IMG/VR virus record: IMGVR_UViG_3300029288_000111
Coordinates: 1-64,000 of that record
Reading direction: 5' to 3' (one strand)
DNA length: 64,000 bases
From: a virus
Lineage: Duplodnaviria; Caudoviricetes
Shown here: positions 846-32,554 of the stretch, one piece after another
Layout of the letters: each line of letters opens with the position of its first letter
Position numbering within the stretch: the stretch's first letter is position 1
The notes under the pieces: generated by a model
The model's input: the letters and a program-made list of their open reading frames with translations, nothing else
Told to the model about the DNA's origin: nothing
Database searches by the model: none
Translations under genes and position numbers: made by a program

Positions 846-3800
846 TCAGTTCAACGTGGGTGCGTGCCGCGCCAGGAGGTGCTGCGCCCGGTGCTGCGCC
901 ATGACGCGCATCCGAGAGAGGAGCGCCCGCCGCCGCTGCGGGTCGCTCGTGCCGAGGAGTTCCCGCCGCATCCGCACGAAGTCGCGGCCGTGCTCGGAGA
1001 TGTGCAGTGCGTGTTCCTTCTCGGAGAACCCGCGCACGTGCTCGTCGGCCACGGGGTCGCGGAACCCCTTGGCGAGGAACACCGCGCGCACCGCCGGCCG
1101 GGTCACGAACACCGCCCGCACCGGTCGTGCCTCCGGCTCCAGGGAGTCCACCACCTGCTCCCAGACCCTCTCGAAGGCCTTCGAGAGGGTCTCTGCGCCG
1201 CCGGAGTCGTCCGTGGCCGCGTCGCTGTCACGGTGCCCAAGCTGCTTGTAGATCTCCTCGACGCGCGCCGTGAGCTGCGCCAGATCCTCCTCGTGCGCGA
1301 ACGCCTTCGCGTTCTCGGCCTTCAACTTCTCGATGTCGCTCTCGGAGTCACGAACGCGGCGTTCGGCCTTCTCCACGTCGGCGTCTCCCTGCCGCAACTG
1401 GTGCCCGATGGTCGCGAAGACGCTCTGCGAGCTCTCTCCCAGATCCGGCTGCGAAAGTTTCACCACTTCCCGACCGCTCGGGGTATGCACGAACAGCGCC
1501 GGCTCCCGACCGTCCATCCCTACCAGGAGAGAGAAGCCCGCGTAACGGCCGATCTCCCGGGGGCGATCGCCGATCTGGCCCGCATGGGTCATCAACTCCC
1601 GGTTCAGCGCCGCGGCGCCGCCGTCGTAAGTGTCGTAGCCCTGGCCTCCCACCTCGATCGCGAACTTCTCCGGCTTGTGCGCCTTGTAGGTCTGCTGGAT
1701 CTCCCGCACCGTCTCGATATGCTCGCGCTGCTGCCCGATCCGCCGCTGGTGAGAGGCGATCAGACTCTGGCCCTGCCAGCGCGCCTGCTGGTGCTGCGCC
1801 TTCAGCGCGCTCAGACGCGCCAGCTTACTCTCGACATCCACCTTCTCTTTGATGATCGGGTCGCCGGAAGCCCATGCCAGCATCTCGGCGGCCGATTGGG
1901 CGATGCCGCTGATGTCCTCCATCTCGCGCACTTGACTGGTGCCTTGCCGGATCTGCTCGATGAACTTCGCCTTCGCGAGCACCGTCTGCCACATGAACTC
2001 GTCGAACGACCCCTCGGTGACGTAACGGTGGATCTCGACCGGGATCCCCCAGTCCTTGTGCATGTTCCCCTGGCGAACGATCCTCCCCTCGCGCTGCTCC
2101 AGGTCCGCCGGCCGCCAGGGGCAGTCGAGGTGATGGAGGGCGAACAGCCGCTCCTGAACGTTCAGTCCGGACCCCGCCTTCTCCGTGGAGCCGATCAGGA
2201 TCCGCAGTTTGCCGCTGTTCATCAGCTCCGCCAGCCGGTCCTTCTTGGCATCGGTGTTGAAGTCGTGGGCGAAGGCGATCTCATCCTCGCGCACCCCCGC
2301 CGCCACCAGCTTGCGCCGCATGTCCTCATAGACGCTCGTGCGCAGCCCCTGCTCCTCGGCCGTGTCGGTATCCTCGTCGGGCTGGCTGCCATCGTCCGAC
2401 GGTTCCCTGTCCTCGCCCGGCTTTGGCGTCGAAAGGTCGAGGAAGACGATCTGCGTGCCCTGCCGATCCGTCACGCGCGGGTCGTGGTAGATCCGCGCCA
2501 CCTCGCGCACGCACCGGTTCACCTTGCCGTTGGGGTCATCCGTCGCGTCCTTGTCCACGAGACGCACGTCGAGCGATGCCTTGCGCGCATCCGAGGACAG
2601 CTTCAGCATGTTGTCCTCGGACGGGTCCGGGCGACTGCTACCCAGCCCACGAATGGCTTCCGCGCGTTTTCGGATCGACTCCATGTAGGATGAAAGAGAC
2701 TCATTGGACGCCGCCGCGTGCGCCTGATCGCGCCGCTCCGGCAGCGGTAGGTAGGGGAGATCCTTCACCAGCTTCACATCTGCGAACTTGCGATACAACT
2801 TCTGCAGTTCTGGTATGTTGACGAACTTAGCGAAGCGCAGGCGCGGCCGGTAGCCTCCTTCGGGCGACGCTTCCTGGTTGTTCACCACCTCGCCGAAGTT
2901 CGCCGCCCACGAGTCGAACCGGTCCACTCCCTTCTCCCTCAACCCTTGCAGGTCGAGATACCGGTTCATCGTGTACATCTCGGCCATCGTGTTGCTGATC
3001 GGCGTGCCGGTCGCGAAGTAGAGACCCTTCCCCCCGTACTTCTTCAGCATCCACTGCGTCTTCGCGAACAGATCCAGCGCCCGCCCCGACTCCGTTCCCC
3101 CCAGCCCCGCGATCCGGCTCATCTTCGTGGGGAAGTAGAGGTTCTTGAAGAGGTGACAGTTAGAGACCAGAACCCCGGCTGCTAGATAGTTGTGGTGCTT
3201 GTAGACTTCGAGGTTATATGTCCACGGACCCGATCCACCACGAGTTGCACATTCCGCAGCACTTCCTCGTTCGAGAACCTCAACACGGACCACCCGAGAG
3301 CGTTCAAGACCGCCGTCTTTCTGGCATCCAGGAAGCGCCACCGCTTCAGCCGGTGCGTCTTGCCGTCCACCTCGATGGTCGTCTTGCTCTTCGGTTCCGC
3401 GATGTCTACCTTGTAGCAGGGCGGGAGCGACGGAAACTGATCCTTCAGGGCCGAAGTCAAGATGGCATATTCCATCGGCAGATCGAGAGCATCGGCCAGA
3501 AGTCTCTGCGGCTCGGTCAGCGTTCCATTGCCGCCGCGGGCAAGGAAGGTCCTGCCCTGCAAGGACCGCCGCATCTTCTCCCGCGTGACCGGGTTTGCCA
3601 TCGGGTTGCGTGTCTTCATCCTGGCCGACGCTTCCGGGTTCGCCTTGCCCCGACATGCCATCTGGCGCGCCTCGGCAATCCACGAATTGAACGCTTCCGC
3701 ACGACCCGGCCGAGAGTTCCGCCACGATGCCGCACACGGGTTGCTGCAGAAGCGCCGCTTCGCGTTGTTTGTCTCCCCCGATGAGCGGAACGTGAACTCC

Positions 3801-6800
3801 TTCCCGCACCACTCGCACGTCTTGACTACCAGGTGCTGCTGAGTCCACAGAACGCCCTTGCACTTCCGGGAGCAACACTTCTGCGCTGCTCCTTGCTTCC
3901 CCCGAGACGATGGCGTGAAGGGCTGCTGGCATACGACACAGACCGGCAACATGATCCTGATCCCCCCCACGAGAGATAACGACCGAACTACCCGAGCGTT
4001 CCCGGAAAGTTGCGATCTCTTCCAGGTGATGCTGCGATGTCAGGTCGCCAGCGCACACATAGCCCTCTTCTGCCGTCCAGACCTTGTGATTGGGTGTGCA
4101 GAGGAACTCTCCCCCCTCATGGACAACCTTCACCAGCGTACCCCGAAGAGGATTCTTCAGCCAGCGAGCGATGCGCTGCCACTCCAGCCCGCCCGTCTCC
4201 AGGTTCACCGAGGCCACTCGCACATCAAGTGCCTTCTCGACAACTTCACCGATGGGGAGCCATCCTCTCTCCGTCAGTACCGGTGTCTCGTAAGGGAAGC
4301 ACTCGTCCACGATCACGCTGTCCACGCCGAGCTCGTCGAACCTCAAACTGGTATCCTGGCGGTCCTGGATCTTCTGCAGCCGCTTCTTGTGGTTCACCCG
4401 GACGCGCTCCAGCATCTTGAAGAGTTGCTTGGCCGTGCGGTCCTTCTTGTCCGGCTGCGCGTCGGGGTCTACTCCCATATCGCGCATCGTGTCCTTGATC
4501 TGCTCCACCGTCTCCCGGTACTGCGTCTCCGCCATCTCATCCGACATCGGGATCTGCCCGAAGGCGGAGTGGGTGATGACCACCGCATCCCAGTCGCCCG
4601 TAGCGATATGCGACGTCAGTTCCTTCCGCTTCCTCGGCGTCCAGTTGCGCGCCCAGACGGTGAGGATCTTCGCCCCCGGGTAAAATTGCCGGATCTCGGC
4701 ATCGGTCTTCGAGAGGAGGTGGTTCGGCACCACGATCATCGGCTTTTTCTTCAGGCCGAGGCGTCGCAGCTCCATCGCCACCCCGGCGATGATCCGGGTC
4801 TTGCCCGAGCCGACGCAGTGATCGAACAGAACGTTGCCCCCGGCGATGGCCCGCCAGATCCCATCCTTGATGTGCTTTCGCAGGCCCGTGGCGATGTGCG
4901 CGGCCATGCCGGGCAGGGTGAGGTGCGAGCCATCGAACTCCCGGTCGCGACTGTCATTGAACAGGTCATTGTAGAGGCGGACGCAGTGCTCCGCGCGGTC
5001 CTGATCCGCCCAGATCCAGCGCTTGAACTCCTCCTTCATCTTGTCCTGGAGTTCCCGCGCCGCGAAGGTCTCCTGCTGATTGACGACATCCCGCTCTTTG
5101 CCGTGATCGTCTACCTCGTGATCCTTCACTGTCACGAACTGCTGCGCGAGGCAGGCAGCGAGGATCTGGTGCGCCGGCACGCGCTGGGTGCCCCAGGTGC
5201 GCGTGTTCTCCACACCCTGCCGCAGATAGGGGTTGTCAAGCTGGACGTTCCAATCCCCCGTGCCCCTGTTGTAGGAGATGACCGGCTTCTTGTCGCCATA
5301 GCCCGCTCGCAGCAGCCCGGAGAAGAACTCCTGGTAGTACTCCACCGGGATCCAGGTCGCTCCCAAGCGCGCGCTGATCTGTGTCGGGTCCAGATCCTCC
5401 GGCTGCACCGCCTTCAGCGCCTCGACGTTCGGCGCGAACGACCCATCCTCCCGCGCCGCCGCTTCCGCCTGCCGTAGCTTCGCCCGCACCGCGCCGCTGA
5501 GGTACTCGTCGACCGGCACCCACCCCAGGCTCACCGGATCGCTCACCTGCGACGGGTCGCGGTAGACCGCCCCCTCCGCCGCCAACTCGTCGCGGATCCC
5601 TTCCGGGTCGCGCTGCAGCAGCCGACTGATATGCTTCCAGTCGATCTTCCCCCGCTCGTTCAGGCAGATCCCGAGCGCATCCACCGGGCTGGACGCCGAG
5701 GCCGCGCGCGCCGCCGGCGTGATCGTCCGCTTCGCGAAGATGTCCGCCTTCGAGATGGCACCGCCGTCGCGCTCCACCCGCTCCAGGGAGAGGACGAGGC
5801 CGGAGTCCGGGTCGTCGCGGAACGCGCGCACGTTCGCCTTCTCGTGCAGGTTGCCGAACTGGCCCACGAAGGCATCATACCGCTCGTTTAGCGTCGCCCG
5901 GAGCCCCTGGAGTTCGGAATCGGGCACGTCCTCATACTGCGCCGAGATCAACGTCTGCGCCGCCTCCCGCAGCCCGACGAGGCCCGCCAATCGCTTGCTG
6001 TCTCCCCCTGCCTCCTCCAGCCGCCCCGGCACGCTCAGGCTCTCCCGCATGTTGCGGTAGACCTTCCCGTCCTGGATGGTGAAAGCCCCCACCTTCAGCG
6101 CCTCGGGCGCGCGGATCGCTTCCTCCTGCGCCTTCTGCGCCTGCTCATAGTCCGAGCCGTCGCTCATCACGTCTTGCGGCAGCCGAGAGATCGCTTCCTT
6201 CAGCGCCTGCCCCAGGTCGCGCCCGTCACTCTTCATCCCGGTCTCGGTGGCGGCCATCTGCCCGAACCCGGAGCCGACCCCCATCACCCCGAGCATCGAC
6301 TCCGGGTGCGCGGCGAAGTACTCGTTGACCTGGATCTCTTCGCCGCCCTGCACCCTCAGCGGCGCCGTGGCGGTCCATTTCTCGATGAACCGCCCCTCGG
6401 GATCGCGCGGATGGAGCCGCTCGAACTCGGGGTCCTTCTTACGCAGGATCAGCACGTCCGTGGTAACGCGCGTGCCGGCGTTCTGGGCAAACGCATCGTT
6501 CGGGAGACGGATCGCCCCCACGAGATCCGCCTGCTCCGCCAGGTACTCGCGGAACCGCTCGTGCGTCTTGGCGTCCATCGTGTGGTGGGAGCTGATGAAG
6601 CAGACGAGGCCGCCGGGGCGCACCTTGTCGAGGCTCTTGGCGAAGAAGTAGTTGTGGATCTGCCGCGTGAGCCAACCGCGCCCGGTGCGCTGGTACTCCG
6701 CGTCGTGAACGGGGAAGTTGCCGAACGGCACGTTGGAGATCGCCAGGTCGAAGTAGTTCTCGGGGAGCGGCGTCTGCTCGAAGCCCTGGATCTGCACGTT

Positions 6801-8243
6801 CGCGTTCGGGTAGCACTGCTTCAGGATCTCGCCGGTCTGCGGTTCGAGTTCCACCGCCGTCCGGCGCGAGAGGCGCGTCAGATCATCCGGCTCGAACCCG
6901 AGGAAGTATCCCGTGCCCGCCGACGGCTCCAGGACGCGACCGCCCCGGAACCCCAAGTGCCGGACGGCATCCCATAGCGCACCCACGATCTTCGGGCTGG
7001 TGAAGTGCGCGTTGAGGGTGCTCTTCTGCGCCGCCTCATACTCCTCGTCGCTCAGGAGCGGCCGAATCTCCTGGTTCAGCTCCCAGTGCGCCTTGTCGGC
7101 GTCCGTCCAGCCTTCACGCACATAATCGGGGATGTCCTCGTAGGAGCGGACCTCCACGGCGCGCGAGCCTCTGGCATACCGGTCGTAGTGGTAGACCGTC
7201 TGGCCGCGCGCGTAGTCATTGAACTTGGGGTGGAATGCCTGCCCGAACGATCCCCAGCCGCTGAACTTGGAGAGCTCCCGCCGCTCCTCGGGAGTGGCGT
7301 CTCGCTGCTCCTCCTTCAGCGTCTTCAGGATCTCGAGCGCGCGCAGGTTCTGCGCGGCGCGCTGGCGCAGGCTCCCCTCGCCGATGACGTCGGCAGGCGT
7401 GAGCCGCAGGTCCTGCTCGTTGCCGATGTATCCGACCTCCCCGGACAGCCCCCGCCCCTCGAAAGCCGGGCGCGGTGCCTTGCCGGCCGCCGGCTCCCCC
7501 GCGGCCGCCACGGGGTCGCTTACCGCTGGGGATACAGGTACATCGGGTAGGCGATCTCCGCCGCCTCGTCCCTCGTCAACCCCTGGCTCACCAGTTCGTC
7601 CACCCGCTCGTGGGCGCGTTCCGCCGCCGACTTCGCCTTCTGATCCAGGATGCCCTGCGCCTTCCACTCCCGATACGTCTTCGGGCTTCCCTCCCGCCAT
7701 GCGTCCAGGAAGATCCGCTCGTATGGGTCGCGCTGCTTCGCCATGTTCCTTCTCCCCTTCCTTCTTCTTCAGAGAACGCAGCGGCGGCAGGATCGTTCCC
7801 GCCGGCGTGGGCGGCGCCTCCAACAGCGAGGGGCCAGTCGGCACCCCCGCCCGAGCACGCTTCTTCGCCACGGGCGCCTCTTCGGCAGGAGGCTCTCCCA
7901 CCGCGGCCGCCGGGCGCGCGATGAAGACCGGGTGCACCGGCGGCCGGTCACTGGCTTCCGGCATCTCGAACAGGCTCCCCTGGCCTGGGCGCTTCCAGCG
8001 GTATTCATAGCCCGTGCTCATCTCGCGATGGACCGGCACCTTCTCCTTGATCAGCCCGACTCGCGGCGCTCCCGGCACGCTGGGCGGCTTCTTCTCCTTC
8101 TTCGCCGCCGGCACCTCGAACATCCCGAGTTGCCCAGCCGCCTCCCGCTTGCGATAGGCCGCCGCGAGGGTGCCCTTCAGAATGCGCTCTACCAGCAGGC
8201 GCAATCCGAGCGCCTTTCCTATCAGGGAGGGGTTCTCAGCCAT
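846..8243 (-). CDS. DarB-like giant protein: N6-adenine methyltransferase + SNF2/SF2 helicase, intein-containing
   Basis: MTase motifs VLEPSAGTG and NVPFG; Walker A HCVGSGKT; DE-CH split by the intein; ATGTPISN; HHLDCPWRPADLEQREGRIVRQGN. Start placed at ATG 8243 (MAENPS) after a GGAGA RBS rather than 8423. Confidence 0.88.
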   Translation of the reverse strand: MAENPSLIGKALGLRLLVERILKGTLAAAYRKREAAGQLGMFEVPAAKKEKKPPSVPGAPRVGLIKEKVPVHREMSTGYEYRWKRPGQGSLFEMPEASDRPPVHPVFIARPAAAVGEPPAEEAPVAKKRARAGVPTGPSLLEAPPTPAGTILPPLRSLKKKEGEKEHGEAARPIRADLPGRMAGGKPEDVSGVEGAGHPGSEGEVGGGTRPRAGGRTGEPGVDEGRGGGDRLPDVPVSPAVSDPVAAAGEPAAGKAPRPAFEGRGLSGEVGYIGNEQDLRLTPADVIGEGSLRQRAAQNLRALEILKTLKEEQRDATPEERRELSKFSGWGSFGQAFHPKFNDYARGQTVYHYDRYARGSRAVEVRSYEDIPDYVREGWTDADKAHWELNQEIRPLLSDEEYEAAQKSTLNAHFTSPKIVGALWDAVRHLGFRGGRVLEPSAGTGYFLGFEPDDLTRLSRRTAVELEPQTGEILKQCYPNANVQIQGFEQTPLPENYFDLAISNVPFGNFPVHDAEYQRTGRGWLTRQIHNYFFAKSLDKVRPGGLVCFISSHHTMDAKTHERFREYLAEQADLVGAIRLPNDAFAQNAGTRVTTDVLILRKKDPEFERLHPRDPEGRFIEKWTATAPLRVQGGEEIQVNEYFAAHPESMLGVMGVGSGFGQMAATETGMKSDGRDLGQALKEAISRLPQDVMSDGSDYEQAQKAQEEAIRAPEALKVGAFTIQDGKVYRNMRESLSVPGRLEEAGGDSKRLAGLVGLREAAQTLISAQYEDVPDSELQGLRATLNERYDAFVGQFGNLHEKANVRAFRDDPDSGLVLSLERVERDGGAISKADIFAKRTITPAARAASASSPVDALGICLNERGKIDWKHISRLLQRDPEGIRDELAAEGAVYRDPSQVSDPVSLGWVPVDEYLSGAVRAKLRQAEAAAREDGSFAPNVEALKAVQPEDLDPTQISARLGATWIPVEYYQEFFSGLLRAGYGDKKPVISYNRGTGDWNVQLDNPYLRQGVENTRTWGTQRVPAHQILAACLAQQFVTVKDHEVDDHGKERDVVNQQETFAARELQDKMKEEFKRWIWADQDRAEHCVRLYNDLFNDSRDREFDGSHLTLPGMAAHIATGLRKHIKDGIWRAIAGGNVLFDHCVGSGKTRIIAGVAMELRRLGLKKKPMIVVPNHLLSKTDAEIRQFYPGAKILTVWARNWTPRKRKELTSHIATGDWDAVVITHSAFGQIPMSDEMAETQYRETVEQIKDTMRDMGVDPDAQPDKKDRTAKQLFKMLERVRVNHKKRLQKIQDRQDTSLRFDELGVDSVIVDECFPYETPVLTERGWLPIGEVVEKALDVRVASVNLETGGLEWQRIARWLKNPLRGTLVKVVHEGGEFLCTPNHKVWTAEEGYVCAGDLTSQHHLEEIATFRERSGSSVVISRGGDQDHVAGLCRMPAALHAIVSGEARSSAEVLLPEVQGRSVDSAAPGSQDVRVVREGVHVPLIGGDKQREAALLQQPVCGIVAELSAGSCGSVQFVDCRGAPDGMSGQGEPGSVGQDEDTQPDGKPGHAGEDAAVLAGQDLPCPRRQWNADRAAETSGRCSRSADGICHLDFGPEGSVSVAPALLQGRHRGTEEQDDHRGGRQDAPAEAVALPGCQKDGGLERSRVVRVEVLERGSAAECATRGGSGPWTYNLEVYKHHNYLAAGVLVSNCHLFKNLYFPTKMSRIAGLGGTESGRALDLFAKTQWMLKKYGGKGLYFATGTPISNTMAEMYTMNRYLDLQGLREKGVDRFDSWAANFGEVVNNQEASPEGGYRPRLRFAKFVNIPELQKLYRKFADVKLVKDLPYLPLPERRDQAHAAASNESLSSYMESIRKRAEAIRGLGSSRPDPSEDNMLKLSSDARKASLDVRLVDKDATDDPNGKVNRCVREVARIYHDPRVTDRQGTQIVFLDLSTPKPGEDREPSDDGSQPDEDTDTAEEQGLRTSVYEDMRRKLVAAGVREDEIAFAHDFNTDAKKDRLAELMNSGKLRILIGSTEKAGSGLNVQERLFALHHLDCPWRPADLEQREGRIVRQGNMHKDWGIPVEIHRYVTEGSFDEFMWQTVLAKAKFIEQIRQGTSQVREMEDISGIAQSAAEMLAWASGDPIIKEKVDVESKLARLSALKAQHQQARWQGQSLIASHQRRIGQQREHIETVREIQQTYKAHKPEKFAIEVGGQGYDTYDGGAAALNRELMTHAGQIGDRPREIGRYAGFSLLVGMDGREPALFVHTPSGREVVKLSQPDLGESSQSVFATIGHQLRQGDADVEKAERRVRDSESDIEKLKAENAKAFAHEEDLAQLTARVEEIYKQLGHRDSDAATDDSGGAETLSKAFERVWEQVVDSLEPEARPVRAVFVTRPAVRAVFLAKGFRDPVADEHVRGFSEKEHALHISEHGRDFVRMRRELLGTSDPQRRRALLSRMRVMAQHRAQHLLARHAPTLN
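3182..3952 (-). CDS. Homing-type endonuclease (Cys-rich Zn motifs + Vsr/DUF559-like PD-(D/E)xK domain) nested out of frame inside the intein
   Basis: CxxC...CCSxxC repeats, basic linker, YKVDIA...IEVDGKTH...DARKTAVLNALGWSVLRFSNEEV. Same strand as DarB but a different frame; own promoter at 3975-4003. Confidence 0.82.
   Translation of the reverse strand: MLPVCVVCQQPFTPSSRGKQGAAQKCCSRKCKGVLWTQQHLVVKTCEWCGKEFTFRSSGETNNAKRRFCSNPCAASWRNSRPGRAEAFNSWIAEARQMACRGKANPEASARMKTRNPMANPVTREKMRRSLQGRTFLARGGNGTLTEPQRLLADALDLPMEYAILTSALKDQFPSLPPCYKVDIAEPKSKTTIEVDGKTHRLKRWRFLDARKTAVLNALGWSVLRFSNEEVLRNVQLVVDRVRGHITSKSTSTTTI
3975..4003 (-). promoter_or_regulatory. ECF-type promoter inside the intein coding sequence
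   Basis: GGGAAC-gctcgggtagttcggt(16)-CGTTATC, about 22 nt upstream of ATG 3952. Confidence 0.75.
7520..7744 (-). CDS. Small helical protein overprinted in the DarB N-terminal linker
   Basis: 74-aa ORF with natural-looking composition and purine-rich RBS (GGGGAGAAGGAAC-ATG); the DarB frame here is low-complexity Gly/Arg/Pro. Confidence 0.6.
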   Translation of the reverse strand: MAKQRDPYERIFLDAWREGSPKTYREWKAQGILDQKAKSAAERAHERVDELVSQGLTRDEAAEIAYPMYLYPQR

Positions 8244-8310
8244 TGGGTCTCCTGGTACATGCGAAGGGCCACCGCGCCTGCGGTGGCCCAGAGTCTTGAC
8301 TCTCGGAAAG

Positions 8311-8964
8311 CTACTTGTCCGGGGGAGGATCGGCCAAGACTGGGGCCTCCTCCGCATCTTCGCCTCTCCCCTTCCGGAGTAACTCCAAGAGTTCCACTGG
8401 TTCATAGGTTGCCGCGAAGACATCCGGCTTGCAAGGGTAGAACTCCCCCTTCACGCCTCGGATGATCCAGTCACCGGGATAAGCCCACATATTGCCTTCG
8501 CGCGTCTGGATACAGACGCCGATCCCTGCGGCATCCGGCAGGTCGCCGAACAGCGGTGTCGTGCCGATGAAGTCGGAGACCTCGTCCGTGTTGCTCCCGT
8601 TCCACTGGATCGCACTCACCACCACCGGCCGCTTGCGGTAGCGAGCACCGGGCTTCCGGTGCTCGGCGGACTTCTCCCCCGGCGTGTTTTTCTCTTCCGC
8701 GACGGCATAGACGCGCTCGCCGAAGCCCTGCATCTCCCTGCAGACGCGATGCTCCAGTTCTCGCAGCGGGTCCGGGGTCATGTTGTCCGCCGCGGGCTTG
8801 CACACCACGTCCTGACTCCGCTCCGCCACCTTCCAGTCACTCATCGCCCACTCACCCACCCGGAGGTTGAACTCATCCTCGCTAACCTCCTGGCCGTCAA
8901 TCCGGTAGATGGTCCGGGCCGAACACTCCCGGTGGTTGTCGTCCGTCCCTGTCTGTATCGCCAT
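8311..8964 (-). CDS. Conserved phage protein (PGDYG-like); start uncertain (8964 or 8844)
   Basis: YRKRPVVVSAIQW...TREG...PGDWIIRGVKGEFYPCKPDVFAATYE motif. Confidence 0.7.
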   Translation of the reverse strand: MAIQTGTDDNHRECSARTIYRIDGQEVSEDEFNLRVGEWAMSDWKVAERSQDVVCKPAADNMTPDPLRELEHRVCREMQGFGERVYAVAEEKNTPGEKSAEHRKPGARYRKRPVVVSAIQWNGSNTDEVSDFIGTTPLFGDLPDAAGIGVCIQTREGNMWAYPGDWIIRGVKGEFYPCKPDVFAATYEPVELLELLRKGRGEDAEEAPVLADPPPDK

Positions 8965-13866: not shown

Positions 13867-13897
13867 CTGCTAACGCGCGAGGCGGCGAAGCGTTCCC
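13867..13897 (-). promoter_or_regulatory. ECF-type promoter
   Basis: GGGAAC-N16-CGTTAGCAG followed by a GGAGG RBS. Confidence 0.8.
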
Positions 13898-31841: not shown

Positions 31842-31871
31842 TGCTAACGCGCGAGCGCCTGATTCGTTCCC
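31842..31871 (-). promoter_or_regulatory. ECF-type promoter at the 3' end of the sigma gene
   Basis: GGGAAC-N16-CGTTAGCA. Confidence 0.8.
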
Positions 31872-32554
31872 GGATCGTACACTCGCAGCCGGAGGTCTCG
31901 CCGCAGCGTCTTCAGCGCTCGGCTGCAGCGTGATCGCACTGTGAGCCGACTTACATTGAGTGCGCTCGCCACGCTCGCCACGGGCGCGTCCTCGACGAGC
32001 CGCATCCAGACCGTCTCTCGATACGGTTCACGGAGCGATGCCACGGCATCCCGCAGCCGCCGCGACGCCTCGCGATTCTCATAGGCGTGCTCGGGTTCGT
32101 CGGCGGCCGGCGCTGGCATCCACTCGCCGGACAGTTCGTGCAGCGAGACGAACGCCGGCCCAACGGCGCGATTCCGCCACCGGGAGATGCAACGGTTCCG
32201 CAGAATTGTGCACAGGTAGGCACGGAAGTTGCGGCGGGCCGCCTGTTCGTCGGTGTCGCCTTCCTGACGGATGGCGAGGGGATCGAACTGCTGGGAACAT
32301 GCGGAGACCATGGCCAGCGCCACGGCATCCGCACACAGGTCGAGCGCGTCCTCCTCATTGCACACCAGCTTGCGCGCCAGCCCGAGGACCTCCTCGCTGC
32401 ACGCCGCGTACCAGCGTTCCAGCCGCAGGTTGCGCTCGGATTCGGAGACGCCTGCCCAGTATCCGGCGGCGCCATCCGATGGTTGACATCTGCCGCTACC
32501 CAATATATAATCGGGTGCAGGCGAGGATGCCGGAGAGGGTGAGTGCTTTTCCAT
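31844..32554 (-). CDS. ECF-type RNA polymerase sigma factor
   Basis: Region 2 (EDALDL...FRAYLCTILRN) and region 4 (LREPYRE...VASALNVSRLTVRSRCSRA). Confidence 0.85.
   Translation of the reverse strand: MEKHSPSPASSPAPDYILGSGRCQPSDGAAGYWAGVSESERNLRLERWYAACSEEVLGLARKLVCNEEDALDLCADAVALAMVSACSQQFDPLAIRQEGDTDEQAARRNFRAYLCTILRNRCISRWRNRAVGPAFVSLHELSGEWMPAPAADEPEHAYENREASRRLRDAVASLREPYRETVWMRLVEDAPVASVASALNVSRLTVRSRCSRALKTLRRDLRLRVYDPGTNQALAR

Follow-up and report, generated by a model that had tools for sequence, protein, structure and literature searches.

A Vsr-like nuclease gene behind a putative phage promoter overlaps, out of frame, the intein of a phage DarB-like gene

How can an intein carry a homing endonuclease that its own reading frame does not encode? 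The question is raised by a 64,000-nucleotide stretch of DNA (the window), part of a 101-kb virus record, in which the initial annotation described an intein frame that stays open for 381 codons but has a featureless middle, and a shifted frame on the same strand that encodes a zinc-finger and Vsr/DUF559-like nuclease. Both descriptions hold, and profile searches of the two frames place the intein termini in the host frame and DUF559 in the shifted one. All the elements discussed here lie on the minus strand (Table 1). The host gene joins an N-terminal methyltransferase to an SF2/SNF2-type helicase (Pfam matches to ResIII, Helicase_C, Eco57I-type methylase and SNF2-rel), and its N-extein shares about 40% identity with phage proteins that carry the annotation 'DarB-like antirestriction'. 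The insertion point is the DExH (Walker B) box of this phage DarB-like methylase-helicase, and Vibrio phage VvAW1 represents the intein-less allele, with the insertion site intact (LDEAHEFKNL). The answer that we consider likely is that a spliceable DarB intein houses a separate nuclease gene in the +1 frame under a phage ECF-type promoter.

Table 1. Features of the intein locus and the phage sigma factor genes (window positions, except for the second sigma factor)
Feature	Position	Strand	Details
DarB-like anti-restriction gene (host)	846..8423	-	ORF, 2525 aa, split within its DExH box by the intein
Intein, 381 codons, no stop	3159..4301	-	VIVDE/C...VLVSN/CHLFKN; TIGR01445 + TIGR01443
N-terminal splicing lobe, residues 1-104	3990..4301	-	Cys1, block B T69-x-x-H72
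Host-frame linker, intein residues 105-330, stop-free	3312..3989	-	predicted disordered, weakly conserved
C-terminal splicing lobe, residues 331-381	3159..3311	-	RVVRVEVLE...HNYLAAGVLVSN
Homing-endonuclease gene, 256 codons + TAG	3182..3952	-	+1 frame, DUF559 2e-12
ECF-type putative promoter inside the intein	3977..4008	-	tttccgGGAAC, 16-nt spacer, CGTTA, then TCT
Leader, purine-rich, RBS-like	3953..3967	-	GGGGGGATCAGGATC, directly before ATG 3952
Relic of the family's usual nuclease start	4040..4072	-	SD-like GAAGAGGG + ATG (4060-4058), in the intein EEGYV codons
ECF-type sigma factor 1	31844-32554	-	TIGR02937
ECF-type sigma factor 2	G000 63907-64833	-	TIGR02937

The nuclease codons begin 1 nt downstream of the host codons, and the ORF lies wholly inside the intein bounds, from an ATG at 3952 (with a GTG upstream at 3970) to a TAG stop (3184-3182) that stands 23 nt before the intein end. 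In the encoded protein a helical linker joins two Cys4 zinc ribbons to a C-terminal DUF559/Vsr-like nuclease domain of the EDxHD type; residues 186-249 match DUF559 [PF04480, 2e-12, 47.3 bits against a cut-off of 20.6], and the zinc-finger profile matches are weak. We found at least 135 homologues, with identities of 38-63%. The residues C52, C55, C75, C79, D189, E200, D202 and H206 are all present in the window protein (YKVD...IEVDGKTH) and are invariant or nearly so in the family, with D189 and D202 invariant and E200 and H206 conserved in at least 90%; by analogy, D189, E200, D202 and H206 presumably form the catalytic core. When the AF2 model (pLDDT 87.3) was compared with known structures by Foldseek, I-Bth0305I came first (3r3p, TMt 0.71, probability 1.00), and a DUF559 structure (3hrl, 0.71) and Vsr (1vsr) were also matched, the modest E-values (2.6e-3 and weaker) reflecting that about 100 of the 262 residues align. 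A profile search likewise matched 3hrl (4.6e-10) and 3r3p (0.007). These results support the view that the nuclease is not an in-frame domain of the intein but a conserved gene of its own, overprinted on it.

The nuclease ATG of many homologues, together with an upstream GAGGA(A)GGA, falls inside a ...W-T-x-E-E-G-Y-V stretch of the intein, and a relic of this arrangement is seen in the window, where reading from ATG 4060-4058 is closed after 6 codons by a TGA (4042-4040). Judged from these codons, the nuclease gene of the window phage has lost the family's usual EEGYV start. The GGGAAC-N16-CGTTA motif that had been reported to precede the nuclease ORF is present at 4003-3977 (-35 GGAAC at 4002-3998, -10 CGTTA at 3981-3977), and it agrees with the extended phage consensus tttccgGGAACgct-N13-CGTTAtct. 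There are 18 GGAAC-N16-CGTTA sites in the 101-kb genome, and the window contains 11 instances of the looser pattern GGAAC-N15-18-CGTT where 1.9 would be expected. Using a position weight matrix (PWM) trained on the 17 other copies, with the scored copy left out, we obtained 37.3 bits for the intein copy, within the range of the members when each is left out (23-48 bits) and far above the best non-member (7.3 bits). Sixteen of the 17 other copies stand 12-43 nt before a start codon; the intein copy has 24 nt between CGTTA and ATG, compared with 16 and 24-26 nt at the other CGTTATCT-class sites. Its leader has G/A-rich counterparts behind the sibling promoters, and the RBS within it (GGGGGG/AGGA) departs from the textbook Shine-Dalgarno sequence. 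Two phage ORFs score 65 and 68 bits with the TIGR02937 sigma70-ECF profile and so clear its cut-off of 42.9. The intein-internal motif is thus supported as a full member of the phage's 18-copy promoter family and not a stray consensus match. Because the usual start is lost and ATG 3952 lies 24 nt behind a GGAAC-N16-CGTTATCT copy, the nuclease is probably transcribed with the phage ECF-type sigma regulon, independently of the DarB message. The initial annotation had proposed such an uncoupling from splicing under an ECF regulon, and at the level of sequence the PWM, the 24-nt spacing and the two sigma factors all support it.

The motif GGAAC-N16-CGTTA is found at none of the 164 homologous loci, and the promoter is therefore a local feature without comparative support. 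This observation also favors the foremost alternative, in which internal initiation on the DarB mRNA is the sole route to translation of the nuclease and the promoter motif is inactive or irrelevant. Internal initiation is the likely mode in most relatives, many of which have their ATG and an SD-like GAGGAAGGA within the EEGYV codons and no recognisable promoter, and a scan of positions 3000-4500 for sigma-70-type promoters gave no match. However, the ATG that would serve this purpose in the window is the one that runs into a TGA after 6 codons, the motif outscores even the best non-member by 30 bits, and ATG 3952 is spaced from it exactly as in its siblings. We regard internal initiation as the sole mode of expression in this phage as unlikely.

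The preferred reading, with its phage ECF-type promoter, also takes the intein to be able to splice. Its first codon is TGC (Cys1, 4301-4299), directly after ...VIVDE, the last is AAC (Asn381), the +1 residue is the Cys of CHLFKN, and these boundaries agree with an alignment of 100 related inteins. The NCBIfam profiles match at both ends [intein_Nterm (TIGR01445) 3e-9, 37.7 bits against a cut-off of 24.5; intein_Cterm (TIGR01443) 8e-4, 19.6 bits against a cut-off of 15.6]. Block B reads T69-P-N-H72, and C1, T69 and H72 are invariant columns among 25 aligned relatives. In the AF2 model the N-terminal lobe has a pLDDT of 91-98 (residues 1-100) and the C-terminal lobe 93-97, with the exception of one loop, and residues 1-100 and 331-381 together are predicted to fold as a mini-intein (HINT fold). 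Foldseek returned 42 matches with E<=0.001, and those listed are all inteins or HINT domains, including the mini-inteins of DnaX, NrdJ-1, DnaE and RecA, with E down to 4.5e-7. Between the lobes, residues 105-328 have a pLDDT below 50 and are modelled without secondary structure, and Pfam and NCBIfam profile searches gave no family match for the middle of the intein frame. The canonical class 1 features are incomplete, since the penultimate residue is Ser and not His, and a Lys occupies the consensus Asp position of block F (YKHHNY here, xDNHNY in the family). Both the His and the Asp are canonical for class 1 inteins but not obligatory; the two substitutions leave the splicing efficiency uncertain. 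We infer from the sequence a cis-splicing, class-1-type intein.

If both products are functional, the host frame should be kept open across the nuclease gene. We held the nuclease protein and its codon usage fixed, shuffled the synonymous codons 200 times and counted the host-frame stops. The window has none against 6.25 expected, and not one of the 200 shuffles was free of stops. Across the homologous loci the shuffles predict a mean of 10.7 host-frame stops, whereas 145 of the 164 homologue-holding loci (117 unique sequences, GC 28-69%) show the +1 offset without any; at these 145 loci the frame one base upstream belongs to an ORF of 700-1900 aa, and the other same-strand frame contains 1-37 stops. 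In 16 free-standing relatives the stop count is about equal to that of their shuffles. The codons tell the same story: a third-position T before codons beginning with AA, AG or GA is absent from the embedded genes (0/8597, against 26% elsewhere), and in the window nuclease (0/59, against 30/202 elsewhere), whereas it is found at 23% of such positions in free-standing genes. These results indicate that selection, and not chance, keeps the host frame open.

The two frames are not conserved alike. In all 17 of the 15-codon blocks scored, the nuclease frame exceeds the host frame in mean column identity, and over the linker this identity ranges from 0.18 to 0.66 in the nuclease frame and from 0.11 to 0.32 in the host frame, with codons 136-150 showing 0.66 against 0.23. 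The host frame reaches up to 0.43 where the nuclease motif GWSVLRFSNEEV has 0.64. Both frames are conserved simultaneously over only about the last 100 nt, where the C-terminal splicing lobe, the greater part of which shares its DNA with the nuclease gene's 3' end, is encoded; elsewhere the host frame is merely free of stops. By column identity, purifying selection in the overlap thus appears to fall on the nuclease frame rather than on the host frame.

A second alternative is that the intein no longer splices, DarB being inactive or tolerant of the large insert, and that only the nuclease is selected and the open frame is a leftover. The Ser in place of the penultimate His and the Lys in place of the block-F Asp favor this possibility, and some hosts probably allow a phage to do without DarB-type anti-restriction. 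We nevertheless consider it very unlikely, given the missing stops and the avoided T in the window. In addition, a Ser-Asn terminus is the majority state among the 100 related inteins, alongside His variants, both splicing lobes are predicted with a pLDDT above 90, and Cys1, T69, H72, N381 and the +1 Cys are intact.

A third possibility is that the open host frame is a high-GC coincidence, or that an assembly or sequencing frameshift has displaced an ordinary in-frame endonuclease domain. The region has a GC content of 58-64%, where long alternative frames are frequent, and the record is a metagenome assembly. However, the same offset recurs at 145 independent loci with GC down to 28%, and in the finished genomes of the cultured phages CP-T1 and MR14; two compensating frameshifts would be required to restore an in-frame product, and the nuclease has its own start and a stop short of the intein end. 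With the shuffle test and the codon rule, this possibility is refuted. Also very improbable is a nuclease without its own start, produced through programmed +1 ribosomal frameshifting as a fusion to the N-terminal lobe: upstream of GTG 3970 its frame stays open for 23 codons, but the TGA at 4042-4040 leaves a 70-nt interval with no recognisable slippery site, a start codon with promoter and leader is present, and free-standing relatives that equal the nuclease in length have their starts at the corresponding position.

The homologous intein and endonuclease units occupy Walker-B sites in SNF2 helicases, DnaX, terminase, ResIII helicases and methylase-helicases, and double coding is the usual state of this large intein family, not a peculiarity of the window. 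At four of the homologous loci (L109, L117, L126 and L127) an intact intein contains a copy of the nuclease gene with premature stops. The statement in the initial annotation that intein endonucleases are normally in-frame domains is incomplete, because out-of-frame cases have already been described (Gorbalenya 1998; two Gogarten-lab preprints). Non-canonical actinobacteriophage inteins (bioRxiv 10.1101/2025.01.02.630785) resemble the present one in being contiguous, with a structureless in-frame middle and an overlapping endonuclease ORF in a separate reading frame; their authors propose that a free-standing endonuclease gene secondarily invaded a mini-intein, and report that annotation pipelines miss such overlapping genes. 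The ORFs found there encode LAGLIDADG (antisense), VSR-like (antisense) and endonuclease VII-like (same strand, frame 3) enzymes, whereas here a same-strand, +1 Vsr/DUF559-like gene belongs to a much larger, cross-phylum family at Walker-B sites. An intein of a bacterial chromosomal gene, with a LAGLIDADG endonuclease in a +2 ORF, likewise holds a same-strand ORF in its disordered middle, with the endonuclease frame conserved, the host frame relaxed and Shine-Dalgarno sequences lying upstream of its endonuclease start; it differs in its host gene and its nuclease, and a dedicated promoter is not described there.

In the 'fractured genes' (Dassa et al. 2009, PMC2677866) the intein is split, and a free-standing gene for a Vsr-like or GIY-YIG endonuclease separates its halves. 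They are mostly phage DNA-metabolism genes with a same-strand Vsr-like gene at the endonuclease-insertion point, and their endonucleases, much as here, bring their own control elements (T4-late-like promoters) and overlap the C-intein coding region by 6-69 bp at the 3' end. There the host frame has become two genes and splicing occurs in trans, whereas the host frame of the window runs open across the full 771 nt, so that the intein is in one piece. I-Bth0305I (PMC3239194; PDB 3r3p), the best structural match of the nuclease domain, is the member on which the EDxHD/Vsr-like family of homing endonucleases was founded, but it resides in a group I intron of a phage recA and has another N-terminal DNA-binding region, while the window protein carries two zinc ribbons and in sequence lies nearer to DUF559 (3hrl). 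ShiLan-type insertions in phage methylases (PMC11855218) also hide a shifted-frame endonuclease in an insertion that leaves the host frame open; that element is not an intein, lacks splicing domains and encodes an HNH nuclease. The general layout has thus been described, and the new detail at this locus is the putative phage promoter embedded in the intein.

Under the reading that we favor, the host ribosome would read straight through the N-terminal lobe, a disordered linker of about 225 residues that would be what the nuclease gene yields when read out of frame, and the C-terminal lobe, and the two lobes would fold into a mini-intein and rejoin DarB by splicing. The nuclease, with two zinc ribbons and an I-Bth0305I-type DUF559/Vsr-like catalytic domain, would be made independently from ATG 3952 and, judging from its family, would presumably cut intein-less DExH alleles, into which the intein would then be copied. 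Selection bars T at the third position of nuclease codons before AA, AG and GA and so keeps the host frame open, and in this phage the nuclease gene, which has lost the EEGYV start, lies instead behind a copy of the phage's own putative promoter.

The host gene is DarB-like: phage proteins that bear the annotation 'DarB-like antirestriction' share approximately 40% identity with its N-extein. The DExH box of its helicase is split by an insert (...VIVDE^CFPYETPVLT...AAGVLVSN^CHLFKNLYF..., with carets at the junctions) whose two ends carry intein signatures (TIGR01445 at 3e-9 and TIGR01443 at 8e-4). The intein-less homologue in Vibrio phage VvAW1 reads LDEAHEFKNLGF at the same place, and therefore the insertion point is DE^xH, with the +1 Cys in the x position. 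In a structural model of the host frame, residues 1-100 and 331-381 of the intein have pLDDT >90 and together match solved mini-inteins; residues 105-328 have pLDDT <50 and are without secondary structure, and a profile search found no recognisable family in the host frame between the TIGR01445 and TIGR01443 matches.

The second reading frame of the intein is on the same strand, its codons beginning 1 nt downstream of the host codons throughout, and encodes a product that passes the Pfam cut-off for DUF559, while the zinc-finger matches are weak. This nuclease has at least 135 homologues with identities of 38-63%, among which two Cys4 clusters and a D189...E200-x-D202-G-x-x-H206 core are invariant or nearly so. 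Its AlphaFold2 model has a mean pLDDT of 87.3, and the best structural matches are the I-Bth0305I catalytic domain (3r3p), a DUF559 protein (3hrl) and Vsr. Two of these, 3hrl (4.6e-10) and 3r3p (0.007), were likewise recovered with the sequence profile. The initial annotation, which described an intein with a featureless middle and a real nuclease in another frame, was correct given the disordered host-frame model and the confidently modelled DUF559 product.

Coordinates of the features discussed, in the window (the first 64 kb of the 101-kb IMG/VR virus record) or, where marked G000, in the whole record
Feature	Position	Strand	Description
DarB-like ORF	8423-846	-	2525 aa; N-terminal methyltransferase and SF2/SNF2-type helicase
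Intein	4301-3159	-	381 codons, 0 stops; N- and C-terminal intein signatures
Nuclease ORF	ATG 3952 (or GTG 3970) to TAG 3184-3182	-	256 (or 262) residues
GGAAC-N16-CGTTA family sites, first base of GGAAC	13896, 29301, 31870, 34509, 40134, 40171, 56549, 62973, 63933		
ECF-type sigma gene 1	31844-32554	-	
ECF-type sigma gene 2	G000 63907-64833	-	CGTTATCT-class site upstream

Viral and metagenome collections supplied 160 loci encoding relatives of the nuclease. Over the whole nuclease gene, the frame that lies one base upstream is stop-free in 145 of 164 loci, which comprise 117 unique sequences with GC contents of 28-69% and host open frames of 700-1900 codons. The remaining same-strand frame contains stops in every locus (1-37, or 4-37 where the nuclease ORF is full length). 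We permuted synonymous codons while holding the nuclease protein and its codon usage fixed, and the shuffled window sequences carried a mean of 6.25 host-frame stops, with none of 200 stop-free; averaged across loci, 10.7 stops are expected. The 16 free-standing relatives, which reside in defence islands or mobile elements, have stop counts close to those of their shuffles. A host-frame stop requires a T as the third base of a nuclease codon with the next codon starting AA, AG or GA, and at these stop-risk positions the embedded genes never use T (0/8597, against 26% at other positions). The corresponding values are 23% against 26% for the free-standing genes, and 0/59 against 30/202 for the window.

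A frameshift in a formerly in-frame endonuclease is rejected as the source of this arrangement, because the +1 layout recurs in those 145 loci and in the finished genomes of the cultured phages CP-T1 and MR14. Chance openness of the host frame due to high GC is rejected by the shuffle test and by the low-GC relatives. Among low-GC loci of the embedded type, L145 (Ga0136656_1047617) is the only one with a single host-frame stop, where 13.4 are expected; its host frame may have been broken recently, be passing towards a split intein, or contain an assembly error close to the end of the contig.

Across 82 full-length loci the nuclease frame is more conserved than the host frame in every scorable 15-codon block, and the host frame is conserved only near its end, where the codons of the intein C-lobe (RVVRVEVLE...) overlap those of the nuclease motif GWSVLRFSNEEV. 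The proposed dual coding of about 770 nt holds in that the stretch is read in two frames, but conservation in both is limited to its final 100 nt or so.

The locus belongs to a large family of inteins with a homing endonuclease overprinted in the +1 frame. In approximately 100 loci almost every intein is bounded by DE^C...(S/H)N^C, and the hosts include SNF2 helicases, ResIII helicases, DnaX clamp-loader subunits, T4-type large terminase, methylase-helicases and DarB-like proteins, with the insertion site always at or adjoining the Walker-B/DExH motif. In DarB-like hosts the intein occupies one of two positions that differ by two codons, and splicing restores the DExH box in either case: DE^CH is used in the window (4299-4304 / 3156-3161) and in the homologous loci L100, L121 and L080, and DExH^(S/C) in L099, L005, L004 and L085-L098. 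Four metagenome contigs (L109, L117, L126 and L127) have a fully open host frame and a nuclease frame stopped at 50-107 codons; with their inteins intact, these truncated ORFs look like the endonuclease decay expected after fixation. The same layout of an intein with a +1-frame DUF559 nuclease is found in gp10 of Vibrio phage CP-T1 (L172, NC_019457.1; 250 codons stop to stop), in gp44 of Pseudomonas phage MR14 (L173, MT104474.1; 246 codons stop to stop) and in approximately 35 Vibrio lentus/crassostreae phage records. The intein region in these cultured phages is annotated only as 'putative helicase' (CP-T1, MR14) or 'coil containing protein', and the nuclease is invisible in annotations because gene callers allow one frame per strand. 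These phages could serve directly as experimental systems.

The window also contains a recurrent promoter-like element, GGAAC-N15-18-CGTT, present 11 times against 1.9 expected (0/100 shuffles reach 11) and with a spacer of 16 nt in all 11 cases. The whole genome has 18 GGAAC-N16-CGTTA sites with a common longer consensus, (a)ttccgGGAACgct...CGTTA(GCAG or TCT), and 16 of the 17 sites besides that of the intein precede a start codon by 12-43 nt. This 18-member family, (a)ttccgGGAACgct-N13-CGTTA, falls into two classes, ten members being CGTTAGCAG-like and eight CGTTATCT. A 44-nt weight matrix was trained with the intein site excluded and scored on both strands (202 kb); the intein site reaches 37.3 bits, left-out members 23-48 bits and the best non-member 7.3 bits. 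The intein site belongs to the CGTTATCT class and lies 24 nt from the ATG at 3952; of the seven remaining sites in that class, six are 24-26 nt from the start and one is 16 nt from it. Two phage sigma genes pass the sigma70-ECF model. Sites of the CGTTAGCAG class lie directly downstream of both, and the promoter classes and sigma gene positions may reflect a two-step sigma cascade.

A scan of 3000-4500 found no sigma-70 promoters, and its two terminator-like matches are on the opposite strand and not above chance. GGAAC-N16-CGTTA is absent from all 164 nuclease-homologue loci, so conservation gives the intein promoter no support. Another GGAAC-N16-CGTT site at 7799-7775 (-), within the DarB-like ORF, was rejected as a family member, as the longer consensus is missing and its score is 7.3 bits, whereas members reach at least 23; it gives no promoter support to the 74-aa shifted ORF just downstream (7744-7520), considered as a second 'overprinted gene'. 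Elsewhere, a 432-aa ORF (13858-12560, -) begins 12 nt beyond the CGTTAGCAG-class promoter at 13896 and overlaps a stretch initially called a TnpB-only IS, and therefore a second mobile nuclease gene may stand behind a phage promoter.

Many relatives have the ATG of the nuclease, together with a GAGGAAGGA-like ribosome-binding site, within the codons for the conserved W-T-x-E-E-G-Y-V of the intein. The window keeps this ATG (4060-4058), but the frame it opens is only six codons long and ends at a TGA (4042-4040). The nuclease begins approximately 25 codons further from the intein start than it does in close relatives, and the promoter lies inside the extra stretch. Class membership, the spacing to the ATG, the two sigma genes and the closed old start make the earlier proposal, that the nuclease has its own predicted ECF-type promoter and would be uncoupled from the DarB message, well supported at the level of sequence. 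A tentative and rather doubtful extension is that the gene was rewired: an ancestral start translated from the host-gene message would have been shut by the stop codon, a copy of the phage ECF-type promoter would have arisen or inserted within the extra linker codons, and the nuclease would now be expressed with the sigma-factor regulon (the CGTTATCT class, which would also drive one sigma gene) and not on the schedule of DarB.

Inteins with endonuclease ORFs that are out of frame or antisense have been described since Gorbalenya (1998), a paper cited by two recent preprints on the subject. Actinophage inteins carry antisense LAGLIDADG, antisense VSR-like and frame-3 endonuclease VII-like ORFs (bioRxiv 10.1101/2025.01.02.630785), and a cyanobacterial DnaX intein has a LAGLIDADG in a +2 ORF (second preprint). 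In phage genes with split inteins, Dassa et al. (2009) reported Vsr-like endonuclease genes that lie between the intein halves under promoters of their own and in some cases overlap the C-intein slightly at the 3' end, and a hidden HNH in a non-intein insertion is already known (PMC11855218). Our literature search found no paper pairing 'intein' with DUF559 in the sense of an overprinted nuclease and no description of a contiguous intein that holds a Vsr-like gene in the +1 frame of the same strand; the novelty therefore lies in the variant and the size of the family, not in the principle. What is specific to the window is the predicted promoter inside the intein, which would place the nuclease in the ECF-type regulon of the phage itself.

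The family is intermediate in form: on one side stand the 'fractured genes' with their split inteins, on the other the canonical inteins whose endonuclease is in frame. This bears on how inteins gain endonucleases. It also offers a clean case of overlap selection, in which one frame encodes a folded enzyme and the other only avoids stops through one absolute codon rule, and a mini-intein that would tolerate a predicted disordered loop of approximately 225 residues is a useful engineering precedent. The window suggests that a phage can bring such a nuclease gene under its own sigma-factor regulon, and regulated homing is directly testable. If the rewiring is true, it would be a step beyond a passenger, towards a phage-controlled weapon against co-infecting intein-less relatives.
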